Positions 4,640-63,265 of a DNA stretch of 64,000 nucleotides are shown here, piece after piece (the stretch's first letter is position 1; each line of letters starts with the position of its first letter). Position numbers and translations under genes: made by a program. Below the pieces are notes generated by a model, which worked only from the letters and a program-made list of their open reading frames with translations, was not told the origin of the DNA and made no database searches. This DNA comes from Nitrospinales bacterium (lineage in GTDB: Bacteria > Nitrospinota > Nitrospinia > Nitrospinales > VA-1), in contig OZ253496.1 of assembly GCA_965262115.1 (NCBI GenBank), forward strand, positions 1,376,001 to 1,440,000, in the 5' to 3' direction.

Positions 4640-4927
4640 GAGACCTTTACATAACCCCGGATTACCCCTTCGGGGCATGAAGGTTAAGGAAGAGGACATC
4701 ACATACCCCTTCTACCCGTTCCGGGCATGAATTTAGCGGAGGGGATATCACAGGCTCACGAAGGTTAAGGAAAAATATCACGTCTTCGTCACGTTATTCC
4801 TCAGAATGACAAACCGGCTTTGCGCTGTCATTCTGAACGCAGTGAAGACGTGATATTCCACTTAAGCTCTCGTGCCCCGAAGGGGTAATCTCGCTTTTTT
4901 GTTTTTTTCGACTTACGCAAAGGTCTC
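4640..4927. mobile_element. MITE of the same TIR family, carrying four nested mini-element copies
   Basis: GAGACCTTTACATAA...TTACGCAAAGGTCTC, flanked by 9-bp duplication ATTGCCTAT (4631-4639 and 4928-4936). Confidence 0.88.
4663..4887. repeat. Cluster of 39-41 nt GNA-hairpin mini-elements (YGTGAT...TTCATGCCCSGNASGGGTA)
   Basis: Copies at 4663-4703, 4704-4781 (with nested 4713-4752) and 4849-4887; many more across the window. Confidence 0.85.
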
Positions 4928-4988
4928 ATTGCCTATTTCCTCTGGCGGCTCGCCGGTTGGCCACATGTTATATACCCCACCTTAGCTT

Positions 4989-6074
4989 TCATGCCCCGGA
5001 GGGGTACGCCGAGTGGCCGAGCAGTTGTTTGTTGAAGGCTTCACGTCCTTCCAGAATTTCAAGTTCGATCACCACTTTAAAAAAAGGCAAGATGAATTTC
5101 ATCTCTTTGAGTTTCACCGCATCTTTTTCTGGAAGCAGAAGGAACCGGGCGCCCTCTTTTACTGCGCGGGACTCCAGTTCTTTAATATCCTGCAAGGTAT
5201 AAGGATGATGATCGGGAAAGGACTTGAAAAATTTTAGTTGAATCTGCGAGTCCAGCAAAATCTGCCTGAATCCTTTCGGTTTTGCAATCCCACAAAATGC
5301 GGCGACCGGTTCATTCTTTAATATTTCCATCTCCAACACTTCCTCATCATCCATGCGAATTATGGAATCCAGACGAAGGTGCGTTTTGATCTGGGGAACG
5401 GAACCTAAAAGGCGTGAATCAAAATTGATGGAACCGCCGGAATAATGGGTGAAGCAAACCATATCTGCCCTTCTTGTTTCTCTTGCCGGTTCACGCAACT
5501 CCCCCGCCGGAAAAAGGTGACCGTTACCGAGCGGCCTGCAATGATCAAAAAGCAGGATGTCCAGATCGCGGTTTAAAGCCAGGTGCTGAAACCCATCATC
5601 CAGAACCAGAGTATCAACACCAAAATGATCGAGCGCGTACTGCCCTGTCTGATAACGGTCTGGCCCGGTTAAAACCGGAATGTTTTTGAGTTTTTCCGCC
5701 ATCATGACCGCTTCATCTCCGACCCACTCAGGAGAAAGCAGCGTTTGTTTTCCATCGCAGACCACATTGACCGGGTCACCGGATTTTCCGCCATAACCCC
5801 GGGTGAGAATAGCGGGCTTGAGTCCGTTTCCCCTGAGGGTTTCGGCAATCATCATGACAAAGGGCGTTTTTCCTGTTCCGCCCAGCGTCAGGTTGCCAAC
5901 GCTGATCACCCGGCAGTCGAGTTTGCGGCTGGGAAATACCCCCCATCGGTAGGCCCAGAGACGAAAATGGTGGCCCAGTAAATAAACAAAGGAAATGAGT
6001 TTCAGGATTGCAAAAACCGGAAACCAATACCATTTGCGATCGGGCGATATGACTTTATAGAAAATTTCAGACAT
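4989..6074 (-). CDS. lpxK: Tetraacyldisaccharide 4'-kinase
   Basis: VISVGNLTLGGTGKTP, LTRGYGG, LDDGFQH, PAGELRE and FPDHH motifs. Confidence 0.95.
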   Translation of the reverse strand: MSEIFYKVISPDRKWYWFPVFAILKLISFVYLLGHHFRLWAYRWGVFPSRKLDCRVISVGNLTLGGTGKTPFVMMIAETLRGNGLKPAILTRGYGGKSGDPVNVVCDGKQTLLSPEWVGDEAVMMAEKLKNIPVLTGPDRYQTGQYALDHFGVDTLVLDDGFQHLALNRDLDILLFDHCRPLGNGHLFPAGELREPARETRRADMVCFTHYSGGSINFDSRLLGSVPQIKTHLRLDSIIRMDDEEVLEMEILKNEPVAAFCGIAKPKGFRQILLDSQIQLKFFKSFPDHHPYTLQDIKELESRAVKEGARFLLLPEKDAVKLKEMKFILPFFKVVIELEILEGREAFNKQLLGHSAYPSGA

Positions 6075-10460: not shown

Positions 10461-10965
10461 CGTAAATCATCCCGGCCCCTCGTGATATTGTTCCAAAGCC
10501 CTCGTGCCCGGCACGGGTACTTTGGAAAAGAGGGACCTTTGCATAACCTGAGATTCTCATTGATCCTCCCCTCTCATGAGGGGAGGCAAGGCGTAGCCGC
10601 GGAGGGGTGTGGATTATTTTTAAGGAATTCATAATCCAACCCTCCCCCAGCCCCTCCCTATGAAGGGAGGGGGGATTTCTGCTTCCACCTTTTTCAGGGA
10701 GGGCCAAGGTGATTTACCACCAGGAGGTTTCAGGTTGTCCCCCTTTTTCTCAAAGAGAGAGCTTTGCATAACCCGAGATTCTTCACTACGTTCAGAATGA
10801 CAAAACAGCTCTTTATTGTCATGCTGAACGAGATCGCATTGTCATTCTGAACGTAGTGAAGAATCTCGCTTTTCAGGTTTTTCGACTTATGCAAAGGTCT
10901 CCTTCCACGAAGTACCCCCTTGGGGAATGAAGGCTGATGTTAAATACCACAGGGGTTGGGGGGAT
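10461..10965. repeat. Composite repeat island (MITE TIRs, CCCTCCC/GGGAGGG hairpin repeat, GTCATTCTGAACG repeat, mini-elements)
   Basis: Near-identical modules recur at 15644-15701, 35187-35367, 51358-51661, 58676-59072 and 63001-63265. Confidence 0.85.
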
Positions 10966-15155: not shown

Positions 15156-15267
15156 TACCCCTTCTACCCGTTCCCCTAAATTCATGCCCGGAACGGGTAG
15201 AAGGGGTATGTGATGTCCTCTTCCTTAACCTTCATGCCCCGAAGGGGTAATCCGGGGTTATGCAAAT
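15156..15267. repeat. Inverted copy of the 4645-4735 mini-element/MITE-end array
   Basis: AAATTCATGCCCGGAACGGGTAGAAGGGGTATGTGATGTCCTCTTCCTTAACCTTCATGCCCCGAAGGGGTAATCCGGGGTTATG is the reverse complement of ~4650-4735. Confidence 0.85.
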
Positions 15268-15701: not shown

Positions 15702-16991
15702 TGATCTTCCCCTGAATTGGTGGACACATCGAAAAGTGTGGATAATACACTTTTGGAGGTGTTTTTATGGGAACCAAACGCAGGAGTTTCAGTAAAGAAT
15801 TCAAGTTAGAAGCGGTTCGATTGGTTATTGAAGTAGGCGATAGCATTGCCCGGGTGTCCCGGGATCTGGGAATCCGTTCTGCCCTTCTGGGTCGCTGGAA
15901 ACAGGAGTATGAGGAGGATCAGGGGAATGCGTTTCCCGGCAAAGGACAGCTTAAGCCGGGAGATGAGTTGCAGCAGTTGCGGCGAGAAAACGCTCGCCTT
16001 CGTATGGAGCGGGACATATTAAAAAAGGCGGCAGTTATCTTTGTGATGTCCTCTTCATTTGTCTTCATGCCCCGAAGGGGTACTCGAAGGGTTCCCAATG
16101 AGATATCGGTTTATACGGGATCATCGAGAAGCATTTCCGGTAAGCCCGATGTGCCGGGTTCTGGAAGTGGGACGAAGTGGGTTCTATGCCTGGCTGAGCC
16201 GCCCCGAGAGCCTGAGGAGCCGTGAGAAGCAGCGATGGGTTGATGAGATCAAAACCGTTTATAAGAAGAGTCGCCAGACTTATGGCAGTCCCAGAATTCA
16301 TGAGGACTTGAAAGACAAGGGATATGCCATTGGCAGGCATCGTATTGCCTGTCTTATGCGCGAGCATGGAATCGTTGCCAAGCACAAAAGAAAGTTCAGG
16401 GTGACAACCGATTCCAAACATAATCACCCGGTGGCAAAAAACAAACTGCAACGGCGGTTTAATGTTGCTGAGCCCGGTCAATGCTGGGTTTCGGATATCA
16501 CCTATATCCCGACTCAAGAGGGCTGGTTATACCTTGCGGTGACGCTGGATTTATTCCACCGTAAAGTTATTGGTTGGGCCATGGATCGTTGGATAACCCG
16601 TTGGTTGGTAATGAGAGCTTTAAATATGGCAATGAAGAACGGCGGCATGAAACCGGGATTGATTCACCATTCTGACCGGGGGGTTCAATATGCCTGCAAC
16701 GATTTTCAAGCCTTGCTCAATGTTCATGGGATAGAGTGCAGTATGAGCCGGAAGGGCGATTGCTGGGATAACGCCGTGGCGGAGAGTTTTTTCCATACTC
16801 TCAAAGTGGAACTCATTCATAACCGGAACTACAAAACCCGTCAGCAAGCAAAGAAGGATATTTTTGAATATATCGAAGTGTTTTATAATCGGCAACGCCG
16901 TCACTAATATCTCGGCTATCTCAGCCCTGCCGAATTCGAGAAACAGGCCTATGCCTCTTAACTAACTGTCCACTAAAACAGGGGAAGATCA
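15702..16991 (+). mobile_element. IS3-family insertion sequence, full length but probably defective
   Basis: TIRs TGATCTTCCCCTG / CAGGGGAAGATCA; orfA HTH from 15767 (FSKEFKLEAVRLV); A6G slippery site at 16021; orfB DDE integrase 16098-16907 ([22 protein letters not shown]). A 41-nt insert at 16042-16082 and a premature TAA at 16905. Confidence 0.95.
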
Positions 16992-18728: not shown

Positions 18729-18908
18729 CCGGTGAACCGCCGGTAGCAACGGGGCGGTGATACCCCTGCGGAGCATGAAGACTAAAGTGGGGACATCACA
18801 CGCACTTGCGACCACCAAAAGCATCGTTGTGATATTCTGCGAAATTCATAATCCAACCCTCCTCCAGCTCCTCCCTATGAAGGGAGGAGAGAATAAGGCA
18901 AGGACTTG

Positions 18909-26312: not shown

Positions 26313-26730
26313 CTGCTCACCGCAGGGGCAAAGTTTAATGACCTATTAAGCCGAGAGGATTGTTGCTGGCAGTAAAAAGCTATTGCTAATCGGCCCTACG
26401 CCTAGTGGCTGCTCGCCGCAGGGGCAATAGGTCAATGCACACCAAGCCTGCAGATGGTATTGCCCACTCAACTCTGGTCTGCAGTTATTTCCTCCCATGT
26501 AAAAGGTGCTCTTTGCAGGGGCGTGGTATTCTTACGTAGCTGTGATGCCTCTTCCTTAAACTTCATGCCCCGTAGGGGGAGAACGGCTACAACTGGCTGT
26601 CCCTTCCTCTTATTTTAGAGATTGTTTGAGCGCGGCAAAAGGTATACAAGTTACCCGCGGAGGTACTCCACTGAATCCAGCGTCACGCTGGCCTCCGCCG
26701 CAAATGGCGGGGCTCTATGACCATAGCTTT

Positions 26731-28290: not shown

Positions 28291-28431
28291 GTACCGGCGA
28301 ACCGCCGGTTGCAGATGCACAAACTCATTAAGCCAAGATAAGCTTTTGCTAGCGCGACATGATATTTTTCATTAAAGTTTGTGCCTCGCAGGGGTATAAA
28401 ACTATCGCTAGTTGGCCCCACGCTTAGTGAA

Positions 28432-37446: not shown

Positions 37447-37570
37447 GCGTGGGGCCAAGTAGCTGTGATACCCTCTTCCACAAACTTCATGTCCCGCAGG
37501 GGTAAATGGCTTTATTGGGCTGGAAAAGATTTGTCTCGGCTTATAAGAGGTTTGCCCCCTCTTTTTAAAG

Positions 37571-37962
37571 TACCCGTGCCGGGCATGAATGCAATTGAAG
37601 AGATATCACAAGGGTCGGGGTGATTTGCAGGGGTCTGCATTGCCCATCATTGTGAGGAACCAACGGTCTAGATGGCCGCGCTCCTTTTACCCCTTCTACC
37701 CGTTCCGGGCATGAATTTAGCGAAGAGGATATCACAGGCTCATGAAGGCAAATGAAGAATTTCACACAGTCGCTCGCGATGACGACCAGATGGGGTAACT
37801 CACATGCTGAGCTAGTCGAAAGCTCGAAGGCCCCTGCTATTTCCCTCCTGCGGAAGTGAACGGCTTGACGGATTCTTGCACTATATACCCCTCCTACCCC
37901 TGCGGGGCATGAAACAAGTGAAGAAATATCACAGGCTCACGAAAGCTAAGGAATAATATCAC
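37571..37962. repeat. Mini-element cluster including two self-nested copies
   Basis: Copies at 37571-37610, 37688-37765 (inner 37697-37736) and 37886-37962 (inner 37895-37933). Confidence 0.82.
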
Positions 37963-42014: not shown

Positions 42015-43174
<1,160 letters not shown>

Positions 43175-43191
43175 CATTTAACACAGTTGCT

Positions 43192-43302
43192 TCGGGGCAT
43201 GAGATACCCGTGCCGGGCATGAAGGCAAAGGTAAAATATCACATACCCGTGCCGGGCATGAATTTTAAGGAAGAGGACATCACAGCTATGAAAGAATATC
43301 AC
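43192..43302. repeat. Tandem mini-element array
   Basis: TACCCGTGCCGGGCATGAAGGCAAAGGTAAAATATCACA followed by TACCCGTGCCGGGCATGAATTTTAAGGAAGAGGACATCACA. Confidence 0.85.
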
Positions 43303-43415
43303 GGCCACCGGCGGCTCGTCGGCCACGCCTGGTGGGTTGACGGAGCCGGGTTAGGGCGTTATGATTCTTTTTCATTAAATTTCTGGAGCAAAGAATGGGG
43401 TACAAAGAATCTTAT

Positions 43416-50209: not shown

Positions 50210-51037
50210 TTAAACATGGCGGAAGTCTTTGCCCTCAAGGCGGACCTTCTTGCACATTTCCATCAAGCGGGAAAAAATGCGTGGGCCGATTTTCTCCTCC
50301 AGAGTGTAGGAAGGCGCGGATTTTTTACTGCCGTCGATTGCCGACTTGTCATTGAAGTTGGTGGTGACCAGTGTCACCTTGTCATCATCGTTGTAGCGGG
50401 TGGAGATGAAGTGATCAAGAATGGTGAGCTCCCAATCCGTGTTCCTGCCCTTGGCCAACTCATCAACCACCAATACCTTGACGCCGACATAGGGATTGAT
50501 GAATTCGCCTTCCGAGATATCTTCTCCATAACCGTGGCGGATGTCGCGCAACAGTTCAAAAAAGTCGACGAACTTGCATTCGATGCCATGTTTTAAAATC
50601 AGTTCCTTGATGATGGATACGGCGAGATGGGTTTTGCCCAGGCCGGGTTCGCCCATGAAAATCAAACCCTGACTGTATTGACCCTGCATCTGGACAAACT
50701 CTTTGATGAAGGTTCTGGACCGGGTTAAAGCGTCTTTCAGCGACCTGTGCCGGGGTGGTGTGACCTCAAAATTGTCCAGACCCTCGTGCACAAACTTGCC
50801 CGGAATCCCAGCTTGATTGAATAGCTTTAATCTTTTATTAAAGTCGGCGCATTGGCATTCGTGGATTCGGGAAATGCCATTCGCATCTTCCTCTAAAATT
50901 CTTCCCGTTCCCTGACAACTTTCACAGGCAAAACATTTGCAGGCTTCGGCGTGGACTTTGCCTTTTTGATTGGACACCACATACTGATGATCGCGGCAGG
51001 TGCTGCAGGTTATCGAGTTGGCCGTTGTACTTTTCAT
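50210..51037 (-). CDS. DnaC/DnaI/IstB-like ATPase with N-terminal Zn motifs
   Basis: Several CxxC/CxC motifs; GEPGLGKTHLA, LVVDEL, TTN and RIFSRL.EMC motifs. Confidence 0.85.
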   Translation of the reverse strand: MKSTTANSITCSTCRDHQYVVSNQKGKVHAEACKCFACESCQGTGRILEEDANGISRIHECQCADFNKRLKLFNQAGIPGKFVHEGLDNFEVTPPRHRSLKDALTRSRTFIKEFVQMQGQYSQGLIFMGEPGLGKTHLAVSIIKELILKHGIECKFVDFFELLRDIRHGYGEDISEGEFINPYVGVKVLVVDELAKGRNTDWELTILDHFISTRYNDDDKVTLVTTNFNDKSAIDGSKKSAPSYTLEEKIGPRIFSRLMEMCKKVRLEGKDFRHV

Positions 51038-51357: not shown

Positions 51358-51661
51358 TACCCTTGCGGGGCACGAATTGATCTTCCCCTCTCATGAGGGG
51401 AGGCAAGGCGTAGCCGCGGAGGGGTGTGGATTATTTTTACGGAATTCATAATCCAACCCTCCCCTGGCCCCTCCCTATGAAGGGAGGGGGGATTTCTGCT
51501 TCCGCCTTTCTCAAAGTACCCCTGCGGGGCATGAAGGCAAAGGTAAAATATCACGTCTTCATCGCGTGCGCTCTTCAGAATGACAAATAGCCTTGTATTG
51601 TCATTCTGAACGCAGTGAAGAATCTCGCTTTTCTGTTTTTTTCGACTTATGCAAAGGTCTC
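51358..51661. repeat. Composite repeat island
   Basis: Hairpin repeat 51377-51510, mini-element 51517-51554, GTCATTCTGAACG module and MITE right TIR. Confidence 0.82.
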
Positions 51662-55354: not shown

Positions 55355-55494
55355 GAAGTATTCCTATTCGAGTATGTTGAAAAAGGACTCAATATACCAC
55401 AGAACTCGCCGACCTAACAAACATAAAATACATAAAATCAATAAGTTATAGGATTACCGGAACGTGGAGTGCCTCCCTCGTGTGAAATTTTTCC

Positions 55495-58400
55495 TTAGTT
55501 TTCATGCCTCGGAGGGGTATTAGAGGGGGTGTGGAACCACTTATATAAGGTGGGCAGGACCACCAGTGTCAACGCGGTCGAGGAGAGGATGCCGCCGATC
55601 ACCACCGTTGCCAGCGGACGTTGCACTTCGGCGCCGGTTCCCGTTGCCAGAGCCATGGGGATGAATCCCAACGAAGCGACCAGTGCCGTCATCAAAACCG
55701 GACGAAGACGCGTGAGTGACCCTTGTCGAATGGCATCATCCAGGGGAACCCCCTGGTCGCGCAGGTTGCCGATGAACGAAATCATCATCATACCGTTCAG
55801 CACCGCGACTCCCGACAGAGCAATAAAGCCCACCGCCGCCGAAATCGATAAGGGAATTCCCCGCAGCCATAGGGAGAGGAATCCGCCAGTGAGCGCCAGG
55901 GGCACTCCGGTAAAAACCAGCAGAGCGTTGGCGTTGGAACCGAACGCCGCAAACAGTAATAAGTAAATCAGCACAAGGGTCAGGGGAATCACCACCCACA
56001 ATCTTTGCGCTGCGGAAATCAGGTGCTCGAACTGACCTCCCCACTCGATCCAATAACCCGGCTCGGCTTTGAGGTTAAGGGCGCTTTGTGCCTCTGCAAC
56101 AAAAGAACCCAGGTCGCGGCCCCTTACATTAGCGGTCACCACCACACGGCGCTTGGCGTTTTCGCGGCTGATCTGATTCGGCCCCTTGATAACTTTAAAT
56201 TCCGCGATCGTTCCGAGTGGTATGAATTTGGGGAAATGTGAACTCGTCCCCGAATGCGCTTCTTCGTCCTGAGCTAACAGGATGGTAATCTCTTTGAGCA
56301 AATCCATATTTTCGCGGATGTCTTCCGGCAAGCGCACGATGAGGTCAGACCTTTGGTCTCCTTCAAAAACCTGTCCGGCCTTTTTTCCTCCAATGGCGAT
56401 TTGGACGACTTCCTGAACATCGGCGGCGTTGATCCCCAACCGGGCCATTGCAGGGCGGTCCATCTCTACCGTAAGAACCGGGAGTCCGGTCACCTGTTCG
56501 ACTTTCACATCGGACGCGCCGGGGATATCAGCCAGAACATGTTCGACCTCATAGGCCAGGACCAGCAGCTTGTCCAGATCATCGCCAAAAATTTTAACCG
56601 CCACATCACTGCGCACGCCCGAAATCAATTCATTAAACCGCATCTCAATCGGCTGGGTGATTTCATATTTGTTACCGGGCACTTCGGCCAACTTCTTTTC
56701 CAGATCCCGCACCAGAGCTGATTTTTCTCTTGTGGGGTCACTCCATTCAGAACGGGGTTTCACTATCACAAACACATCGGCCACACTGGGTGGCATCGGG
56801 TCGGTGGCAATGTCCGCCGTGCCGATCTTCGCAAAAACATAATCCACTTCCGGCAGTTCTTTTATTTTTTTCTCCAGCGTGTCCTGCATGGAAACGGCTT
56901 GAGAAATACTGGTACCGGGAACCCGAAGGGCGTGAACGGCGAAATCCCCTTCATCCAGAGTCGGGAGAAACTCGCTGCCCAATTTCTGGATCAATAAAAT
57001 ACTGAGCACAACCAGAACCCCGGCAAAGGCGATCACCGAGGCGCGATTCCTGGCGGTGACGTCCAGCAGGAAAGAATAAAACCGGTCCGCGCCTTTTAAA
57101 ATGATGCTCTCCTTTTCAGAGATGGAAGAAGATGCAAACTGAGCCATCATCGCCGGAACAAAAGTGATCGAAAGAATCAATGCTCCGGCAAGAGCCATCA
57201 ACACGGTGAAAGCCATGGGCTGAAACATTTTGCCTTCGATTCCAGTCAGGGTGAGTATGGGCAGATAAACGATCATGATGATGAACACCCCGAAGATGCT
57301 GGGGCGGGAAACTTCGCAGGCAGAACTTTGCACAATGTCAAAGCGTTCCTGCTGATTTAATATTCGCCCCAACTGTTTTTGTTTCTCGGTAAGGCGGCGA
57401 CTGCAGTTTTCCACAATGATCACCGCACCATCGACGATGATGCCAAAATCAATAGCGCCCAGGCTCAACAGGTTGCCACTGACCCGGTTGCTCACCATCC
57501 CCGTTACCGCAAACAACATGGAAAGGGGAATCACCAGCGCCGTGATCACCGCCGCGCGGAAATTGCCCAGCAACAAAAATAAAACGGCGACAACCAGAAG
57601 CGCTCCTTCCAGAAGGTTGTCACGGACGGTTTTGAGAGTGGCGTTAACCAGATGGGTACGGTCATAAACGGTTTGTGCCACCACGCCTTCGGGCAAAGTC
57701 TGGTTGATCAATTTCATTTTCTCGGCAACCCTTAATGAAACCGTTCTACTGTTTTCTCCCTTAAGCATGAACACAGTACCCAGCACCACTTCCCAGCCAT
57801 TTTTGGTTGCGGCTCCCGTCCTCAACTCCTTGCCCAGGTCCACGTCTGCCACATCCTTAATATAAACAGGAACCCCTTGATGGGAACCGATGACAATATT
57901 TCTAATATCCTCCAGGCCCGATACCTGACCGGGGGTTCGCACAAGGTATTGCTGACCGCTATGCTCAATATAACCCGCACCAGTGTTTTGGTTGTTTCTG
58001 CTCAAAGCTTCGATGACATCTCTGAACGAAAAACCATAGGCGATCAGTTTTTGCGGGTCGGGCGACACCTGAAAATTTTTGACATATCCGCCGATGCTGT
58101 TGACCTCCGTCACCCCGGGAATGTTCATCAGTTGCGGCTTGATGATCCAGTCCTGAATGGTTCTCAGCTCAGAAGATGAATAGGGTTTGCGATTTTGGTC
58201 TTCGGCTTCCACCGACCACATGAAGATTTCCCCCAGTCCGGTAGCGATCGGACCCATAACCGGTTCCACGTTTTCAGGCAGGTGGCTTTTCACTTCCTGA
58301 ATTTTGGAATTGATCAATTGCCGGGCGAAAAATATATCTGTTCCATCCTCAAAAATCACCGTGACCTGGGAAAGGCCGTAGCGGGACAGCGAACGGGTGC

Positions 58401-58675: not shown

Positions 58676-59072
58676 TTGTAAATCCCCCCAGCCCCTCGTG
58701 ATATTTTACCTTTGCCTTCATGCCCGGCACGGGTATGTGATATTTTACCTTTGCCTTCATGCCCGGCACGGGTACTTTAAGAAAGGCGGAAGCAGAAATC
58801 CCCCCTCCCTTCATAGGGAGGGGCCAGGGGAGGGTTGGATTATGAATTCTGTCAAAAACAATCCACACCCCTCCGCGGCTACGCCTTGCCTCCCCTCATG
58901 AGAGGGGAGGATCAATGAGAATCTCGGATTACGCAAAGGTCCCTTTTGAGAAAAAGGGGGACAACCTGAAACCTTCTGGTTGTAAATCCCCCCAGCCCCT
59001 CGTGATATTGTTCCAAAGCCCTCGTGCGGGGCATGGAGGCTGATGTTAAATACCACAGGGGTCGGGGGGATT
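58676..59072. repeat. Composite repeat island inside the czc operon
   Basis: Two exact tandem mini-elements (58698-58774), a hairpin repeat and a MITE TIR; modules shared with 10461-10965. Confidence 0.85.
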
Positions 59073-63000: not shown

Positions 63001-63265
63001 GTGATATTCTTCCCCGGCTGTGATGTCCTCTTCCCTAAACTTTATGCCCGGTACGGGTATGTGATATTTCACCTTTGCCTTCATGCCCGGTACGGGTACT
63101 TTAAGAAAGGCGGAAGCAGAAATTCCCCCTCCCTTTATAGGGAGGGGCCAGGGGAGGGTTGGATTATGAATTCCGTAAAAATAATACACCCCTCCGCGGC
63201 TACGCCTTGCCTCCCCTCATGAGAGGGGAGGATCAATGAGAATCTCAGGTTATGCAAAGCTCTCC
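63001..63265. repeat. Composite repeat island
   Basis: Tandem mini-elements 63019-63099 plus a hairpin repeat and MITE TIR; nearly the same as 58698-58942. Confidence 0.85.

Follow-up and report, generated by a model that had tools for sequence, protein, structure and literature searches.

A 39-41-base mobile element of marine Nitrospina-type genomes that inserts without target duplication, with a first base that covaries with the base before its end hairpin and a 5' flank that is sometimes replaced

We analyzed a stretch of 64,000 nucleotides from a Nitrospinales bacterium (the window; contig OZ253496.1), whose source genome, G000, comprises 2.68 Mb in one contig. The window contains 23 full copies of an element of 39-41 bases, as well as outer copies that are split by others (24 rows were listed, and the one at 50609 was dropped as a false match). 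The hairpin motif of the element has 20 matches in the window compared to none in 100 shuffles of the window, and the reversed pattern, used as the other control, has none in all 61 genomes. The initial annotation of this DNA had claimed more than 20 copies, which is borne out: all 15 places that it named hold a copy or fall within one, although three starts were slightly off (4966 and not 4968, 58697 and not 58698, 18761-18800 for 18770). The features of the window are the following:

4663..4703, minus strand: 41-base copy, head-to-tail after an outer copy
4704..4782, minus strand: this outer 39-base copy (4753-4782 plus 4704-4712), split at its loop by an inner copy
4713..4752, minus strand: the 40-base inner copy, inserted 5' of the GNA loop of the outer copy
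4755..4756, minus strand: replaced bases, AG, at -4/-3 of the nested insertion
4827..4894, plus strand: host hairpin repeat (REP-like) bearing the 4849-4887 copy
4849..4887, plus strand: 39-base copy; its first base C pairs with G at position 24
4966..5006, plus strand: 41-base copy across the lpxK stop region
10481..10519, plus strand: 39-base copy, identical at the orthologous place in the relative G013 and near-identical in G019
10856..10869, plus strand: empty paralogue of the 4849 site
10913..10951, minus strand: decayed 39-base copy
15209..15249, plus strand: 41-base copy following a rearranged nested pair
16042..16082, plus strand: 41-base copy that lies 3' of the A6G frameshift motif, within the end of IS3 orfA
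18761..18800, minus strand: 40-base copy, common to G019
26541..26580, plus strand: 40-base copy nested in a decayed copy, with the 5' flank GTAGC
28358..28396, plus strand: 39-base copy; the orthologous site in G013 is empty, with one base differing at -4
37464..37504, plus strand: 41-base copy in a host repeat of ~60 bases
37571..37933, minus strand: three copies (37571-37610, 37697-37736, 37895-37933), of which the second and third are nested at loops and have AG at -4/-3
42234..43189, plus strand: broken IS110 copy whose right end adjoins a hairpin of the element, which is its target
43190..43303, minus strand: outer copy interrupted by a tandem of two others (43205-43243, 43244-43284)
51517..51555, minus strand: 39-base copy
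55481..55519, plus strand: 39-base copy across the end of an AcrB-family gene
58697..58774, plus strand: head-to-tail pair whose junction folds as an 8-pair stem
63019..63098, plus strand: head-to-tail pair nested in a split copy

Following the numbering of the 39-mer, the element consists of a variable base 1, GTGATR at bases 2-7, a variable pyrimidine-rich middle at 8-20, TTC and a variable base at 21-24, and a six-pair stem (one pair being G-T) with a GNA loop at 25-39; the GNA triloop is a DNA mini-hairpin motif. There are 398 different middles among 754 copies. The first base, previously given as Y, can be T, C, A or G, whereas the reported covariation of the terminal hairpin was confirmed: the closing pair is C-G in 320, G-C in 117 and T-A in 14 of 474 copies, and the loops GAA, GCA, GGA and GTA account for 460 of the 474. 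Base 1 is complementary to base 24 in the Watson-Crick sense in 442 of 474 unique copies (T:A 259, C:G 143, A:T 37, G:C 3); in the part of G013 that was covered (2.46 of 2.86 Mb), the same holds for 317 of 341 copies. Kinship among copies can inflate such counts, but all four pair types occur. Among 83 ungapped 39-mers with unlike flanks and middles, 39 show change on both sides of this pair, and the covariation score of 0.219 was reached by none of 500 shuffles, while slid registers gave at most 0.104. The neighboring G2 and C23 are conserved and complementary. Because base 24 precedes base 25, and base 25 pairs with base 39, the 1:24 pairing would make the first and the last bases of the element adjacent; it is likely that the complementarity of base 1 to the base before the end hairpin folds both ends together. 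A natural head-to-tail junction folds as an 8-pair stem, and the helix of 1-2 with 23-24, i.e., two extra pairs, is not predicted in a lone linear copy.

Two roles for the middle were considered and rejected. As a target guide, it is no more complementary or identical to the flanks than under permutation (87 sites, p 0.11-0.93), nor does covariation single out any complementary pair of columns; as a coding start on the other strand, it provides no consistent long frame. On this reverse strand the variation has a three-base rhythm, often from ATG AAG onward, that opens no consistent gene.

In G000 there are 334 hairpin ends, of which 281 have the GTGAT head at the correct spacing, and 267 of these 281 copies are 39, 40 or 41 bases long. 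Counting across the genome and its relatives, as the initial annotation had proposed, we found the strict pattern in 24 of 36 relatives of the same family versus none of 24 genomes from three other families; among the genomes searched, a single family of the phylum has the element. Of 80 loci listed for the genome collection, nearly all are assigned to Nitrospina, Nitrospinaceae, Nitrospinales or Nitrospinota, with two exceptions, a copy in a Neomarinimicrobiota contig and a chance-like Pseudanabaena match that has no typical middle. Only 7 of the 281 copies lie inside ORFs of at least 200 aa, although such ORFs make up 66% of G000. An Rfam scan of the window returned tRNAs and tmRNA only, with no match for the element. 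The density of copies in G000 is higher close to the GC-skew minimum, with 85 in the sixth of the genome nearest to it and 24 in the farthest, and there is no strand bias. Close to where the contig begins, and not in the window (G000 ~3279-38641), there are long tracts of low complexity and of tandem repeats, possibly an assembly artefact.

Comparison of filled and empty sites indicates how these copies arose. The empty site at 10856-10869 matches the filled one at 4849-4887 as earlier described; the orthologous site of 28358-28396 in G013 is empty, with a gap of 39 bases; and the repeat around 28358-28396 regains unit length when the insert is removed (58-64 bases for empty units versus 98-102 for filled ones). 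Further empty/filled pairs come from separate comparisons, which include this copy. The insert at 16042-16082, from whose removal the end of IS3 orfA had been expected to gain, corresponds to an exact 41-base gap in four IS3 homologues of other genomes, and two metagenome IS3s run straight through the site with no insert. Overall, 12 of 355 elements with an orthologous interval have an orthologous empty site, most intervals being too rearranged for scoring. The gaps are exactly 39-41 bases, and there is no target duplication in the orthologous pairs or in the IS3 comparisons. Thus, an element with fixed ends has inserted, without target duplication, at hundreds of places in marine Nitrospina-type genomes. 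The proposal of a tiny non-autonomous element moved in trans is supported by the orthologous empty sites together with identical element sequences at unrelated flanks. Gaps in orthologues and in IS3 correspond to single units, so that the single unit, and not the inverted doublet, is mobile. Copies are also present in phage contigs, away from host repeats; in one contig of 50 kb, a copy (L009:1024-1539) lies near the end of a gene that we take to be RusA-like, and a second copy (L010) is found in the same contig.

Most insertions have gone into other hairpin repeats or into the element itself, which is entered after base 9, before TTC, at the loop or after its end. The target motif is weak, with G at -5 in 108 of 169 sites, a purine at -3 in 130 and A at -2 in only 3, and the fixed target of 4-5 bases 5' of the element that characterizes IS200/IS605 is absent among these 169 sites. 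In G000, there is no preference for the lagging strand (146 versus 135, p 0.55; isolated copies 75 versus 66), and copies occur on either strand relative to genes. Tandem arrays reach four copies; rolling-circle concatemers were rejected as their general source, given that many tandems combine unlike copies. No excised or circular form was seen, and no joint skipping 16042-16082 is among the joints listed in four contig sets, contigs being prone to drop rare forms. At seven places in G013 (L191, L192, L215, L239, L253, L298, L301), the 3' half and the host flank are kept and unrelated DNA begins a few bases before TTC; these fused copies possibly mark a hot spot of deletion or rearrangement.

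The insertions had been described as clean, which holds for their length but not always for the 5' flanking bases, some of which are altered at certain sites. Of the 12 orthologous pairs, one tandem and one misaligned pair were dropped, leaving 10 for scoring. In four of the 10, 2-5 bases are replaced within positions -6 to -1, with no such tract on the 3' side; in the other six the 5' flank is unchanged, one of them differing at +1 and another at +6. Changes at -6 to -1 amount to 12 of 60 positions, compared to 2 of 60 at +1 to +6 (p 0.008 with the misaligned pair, one of 11, dropped, and p 0.11 with it kept) and to 5 of 120 positions further left (p 0.002).

The same is seen, in larger numbers, among paralogous sites. 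At the loop of the element itself, AG stands at -4/-3 in 22 of 29 filled sites versus 0 of 609 unsplit copies, i.e., CC has become AG. The window example is 4755..4756, the counterpart of which, in the unsplit copies examined, is never AG and nearly always CC, and a change of this type is also seen in an orthologous pair elsewhere in G000. At the internal site before TTC, GTAGC is found in 9 of 17 filled versus 0 of 359 empty sites, and in a second host AG is found in 6 of 9 filled sites versus none of the 153 listed (of 156) empty ones. It should be noted that these paralogue counts do not represent independent events, as host repeats amplify together with their inserts. A single founder does not easily explain the AG loop cases, however, because they cover three base-24 classes, several hosts and many inner sequences. 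In one inner clade, AGC precedes 8 of 9 copies in two hosts whose empty alleles are CCC, which fits carriage of the donor flank. The hosts GAAGA/ATC and CCCCT/CTT (the slash marking the insertion point) show almost no flank change, and one host family has a change at +2 (28 filled sites, no empty ones), mostly tied to one element type, that is possibly a single event. In the literature, mainly non-subscription texts without supplements, we found no account of flank overwriting by a tiny repeat.

The element is itself exploited by an IS621-like IS110, with 24 domain matches in G000 (e.g., window 42234-43189 and G000 736440-737650). All 26 right ends that were found adjoin a mini-element hairpin, 25 of 26 left ends follow a CCCCTT-type sequence, and the left end contains both predicted target guides and one donor guide, the guides matching the mini-element hairpin. 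Bridge RNAs with guides in the left end, a short core and a REP-like target are described for IS621 in the accessible part of PMC11208160, and the resident IS110 conforms to this pattern. Because the hairpin adjoins the right ends and the left-end guides match it, the mini-element is considered a target of IS110, as REPs are for IS621; tested as an IS110 derivative, it showed no core common to its own junction and its own targets. The first stem-loop in the left end of this IS110 (G000 ~736480-736535) has GTGAGCC followed by CTGTG, near the overwritten nested-junction sequence, a likeness that is probably due to chance, because nested AG junctions exist in genomes where IS110 was not found. 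The IS3 occupies window 15702-16990 and 14 further places in G000; all 15 found carry the insert, and full-length copies are 99.7-100% alike, although the -1 frame now runs into a stop and it is the +1 frame that holds orfB. Read in the frame of orfA, the insert provides CCC-CGA, where a +1 slip is possible, with CCA there in three copies. Seven of the IS3 inserts have themselves been hit by IS110.

The search for the mover included the check, raised by the initial annotation, for a nuclease or transposase gene consistently flanked by the element, and no gene is so flanked. None of Y1/HUH, reverse transcriptase and IS110 is common to all high-copy genomes; IS110 (PF01548) was not found in G019 and G022. 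DUF559 was rejected as the mover, since it was not found in G007 at 1e-12 and is common in element-free families. Tyrosine recombinases were rejected as well: two Xer-sized genes are common to all five genomes, and the stem of attC is far longer than that of the mini-element. A longer autonomous form was found neither in G000 nor in 2.46 of 2.86 Mb of G013, and hairpins with no head, considered as an autonomous parent, represent decay, deletion end-points or IS interruptions. No new mobile gene common to G000 and G013 is among 58 non-syntenic shared ORFs, which, as read by eye, presumably include IS, DUF559 and toxin-antitoxin genes. A small GIY-YIG nuclease gene, flanked by its own repeats, is present in all five highest-copy genomes; two genomes with no element, G016 and G024, have it as well, whereas a search did not find it in G003, G004, G012 and G031, each with 11-20 copies. 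This nuclease is a weak candidate for the mover. DUF559 and small GIY-YIG genes with their own inverted repeats are located in G000 at 377385, 660936, 735444, 1034378, 1582297, 1589978, 2140509 and 2573218, and these inverted repeats belong to the same repeat families that host the mini-element.

The explanation that we prefer, with a probability of roughly 0.45, is that the element moves single-stranded and folded, its ends aligning themselves, and that its 3' joint is exact and its 5' joint can slide by up to ~6 bases into the donor flank. Within this folded, gene-less DNA strand, bases 1-2 would be paired to the dinucleotide preceding the terminal GNA hairpin, bringing both ends to one point, and a nicking and strand-joining enzyme supplied in trans would act where they meet. 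The complementarity of 1:24 and 2:23 may guide a cut. The 3' end would be cut and joined exactly at the hairpin foot; for the 5' junction, a short flap or an invading strand would be used, either at base 1 or as far as ~6 bases upstream, and the old flank of the donor would sometimes overwrite an equal number of target bases. Within this model, the small repeat-flanked GIY-YIG nuclease, working with host polymerase and ligase, is the likeliest enzyme, though still a minority choice; the enzyme would otherwise be an unrecognised host or phage enzyme. It is likely that the 5'-side replacement comes from a paste-over step of a mover enzyme; alternatively, conversion between paralogues could carry the flank of a founder. 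A more specific chemistry, which would be new for transposition and in which the 40-base strand acts as its own splint, its two ends forming a nicked stem, and a non-HUH enzyme (the repeat-flanked GIY-YIG or a host enzyme) writes donor upstream bases over the target, is tentative and, in our estimate, somewhat doubtful.

The initial annotation leaned toward HUH/Y1 systems. Spelled out, such a mechanism would be peel-and-paste by a TnpA/RAYT-like enzyme, too divergent for detection or visiting with a phage or plasmid, through a single-stranded circle, with clean insertion and with flank changes as later, separate events. In the accessible part of PMC8266576, the guide 5' of a REP hairpin picks a dinucleotide by its last two bases, GTAG selecting CT; likewise, the last two of the four bases 5' of the mini-element hairpin complement the end dinucleotide, and the absence of target duplication, the tandem arrays of up to four and the copies in phage contigs are also in line with such an enzyme. 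However, the Y1 profile PF01797 has no match in G000, G013, G007 or G022 (G013 and G007 being near-complete and high-copy), of the family's 17 Y1 loci only 1 lies within ~1.5 kb of a copy of the element, the other 16 having none nearby, and PF11726 has no match in five genomes; a Y2 search, given no weight here, matched nothing, and neither did its control. There is a single hairpin and no lagging-strand bias, the one-sided 5' replacement is unexpected for IS200/IS605 or REP-RAYT, and the element would be cut before the paired dinucleotide, whereas the RAYT cut, according to the accessible part of PMC3333891, falls inside CT, between C and T. This lean is therefore not supported, and we consider it unlikely.

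An equally unlikely explanation is clean insertion by another enzyme, with the altered 5' flanks due to later gene conversion, through which a small number of founder alleles would be distributed over paralogous host repeats and middles would be exchanged. One orthologous case has at least 17 bases of paralogue homology on the left, first-base classes track host families, with 7 of 398 middles common to different classes, and IS3 inserts of one origin carry three middles (15 IS3 inserts compared). Conversely, loop recipients retain their own base-24 class (A, G or T) and loop base while gaining AG, the loop cases involve many different inner copies and have only ~2-5 bases of homology remaining on the left, CC has likewise become AG in an unrelated host, and an unfilled AG allele was not found (0 of 609).

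Still less probable is retro-insertion, in which an RNA ending at the hairpin would be copied into the site by target-primed reverse transcription; the 3' junction would then be exact, and the 5' junction would vary and bring upstream bases along. Exact 3' and altered 5' junctions do resemble the homing of group II introns, where co-conversion is upstream only; however, reverse transcriptase (PF00078) is broken in G000 and was not found in the high-copy genomes G007 and G019, GNA triloops belong to DNA mini-hairpins, and there is no target duplication, no series of 5' truncations and no preferred strand relative to genes. Very improbable is a process with no dedicated enzyme, in which short single strands set free by repair nucleases would find microhomology at forks and anneal there, the folded element forming a loop: sites share a weak target motif and neighboring flank bases are more alike among near-identical copies (~0.5) than among distant ones (0.25-0.35), but identical copies stand at flanks with no likeness, the ends are exact, and the element is restricted to one family among the genomes searched.

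These results address the question of how repeats of 20-40 bases move with no RAYT. The covarying pair predicts a folded substrate and a cut point, and the one-sided flank replacement separates candidate chemistries, two handles that bare repeat catalogues do not provide. One genome shows layered parasitism, with the element in REP-like repeats and IS3, and with IS110 programmed against the element; a signal for scar-free insertion of 40 bases would also be of practical interest. If paste-over is true, the family would represent a minimal, enzyme-orphan type of mobile element that also edits the place where it lands, and it would offer a way toward the movers of many tiny bacterial repeats.

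Among known systems, the small dispersed repeats (SDR1-8) of Nostoc, attributed to Elhai et al. (2008), are reportedly very short, gene-less and multi-copy, insert with no target duplication into other repeats, and are said to have an unknown mover. Their definition covers the mini-element in its size of tens of bases, exact-length insertion, absence of target duplication and nesting; unlike SDRs so described, it is longer (39-41 bases) and has a fixed head, a variable middle and a 3' hairpin rather than one palindrome, as well as the 1:24 covariation and the sometimes replaced 5' flank. The suggestion that the element is possibly undescribed stands insofar as no account of this family was found in the literature, mainly non-subscription texts, whereas similar tiny repeats, the SDRs, have been reported. 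With REPs and REPINs, as presented in the accessible parts of PMC8266576, PMC3333891 and PMC3116915, it shares a short extragenic hairpin with a 3-base loop, high copy number, clusters and tandem arrays, the role of IS110 target, and, where the hairpin has its 5' foot, a motif of four bases complementary to the likely cut site. Unlike in REPs, this motif is TTC-N (alignment A1) and not GTAG or GTGG, its last base varies along with base 1 of the element, single units move and not doublets, the ends are fixed, and no RAYT was found. Like IS200/IS605 derivatives, it lacks target duplication, its head, ~20-base linker, guide and hairpin resemble a left end, and complementarity of the guide/cut-site type is present (1:24 covaries, 2:23 is conserved); unlike them, it has one hairpin, guide-paired bases inside the element and no fixed 4-5-base target, with no Y1 found and no strand bias. 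Compared to IS621-type IS110, as far as PMC11208160 is accessible, it is a target and not a derivative, and unlike a DDE-type MITE it has neither terminal inverted repeats nor target duplication. The mini-element works like a REP or an IS200/IS605 end through its guide-like foot motif, and differs from both groups in motif, enzyme, unit and strand bias. Beyond the earlier reading, two features are new: the covariation of base 1 with base 24, and insertion that is not always clean in the 5' flank.
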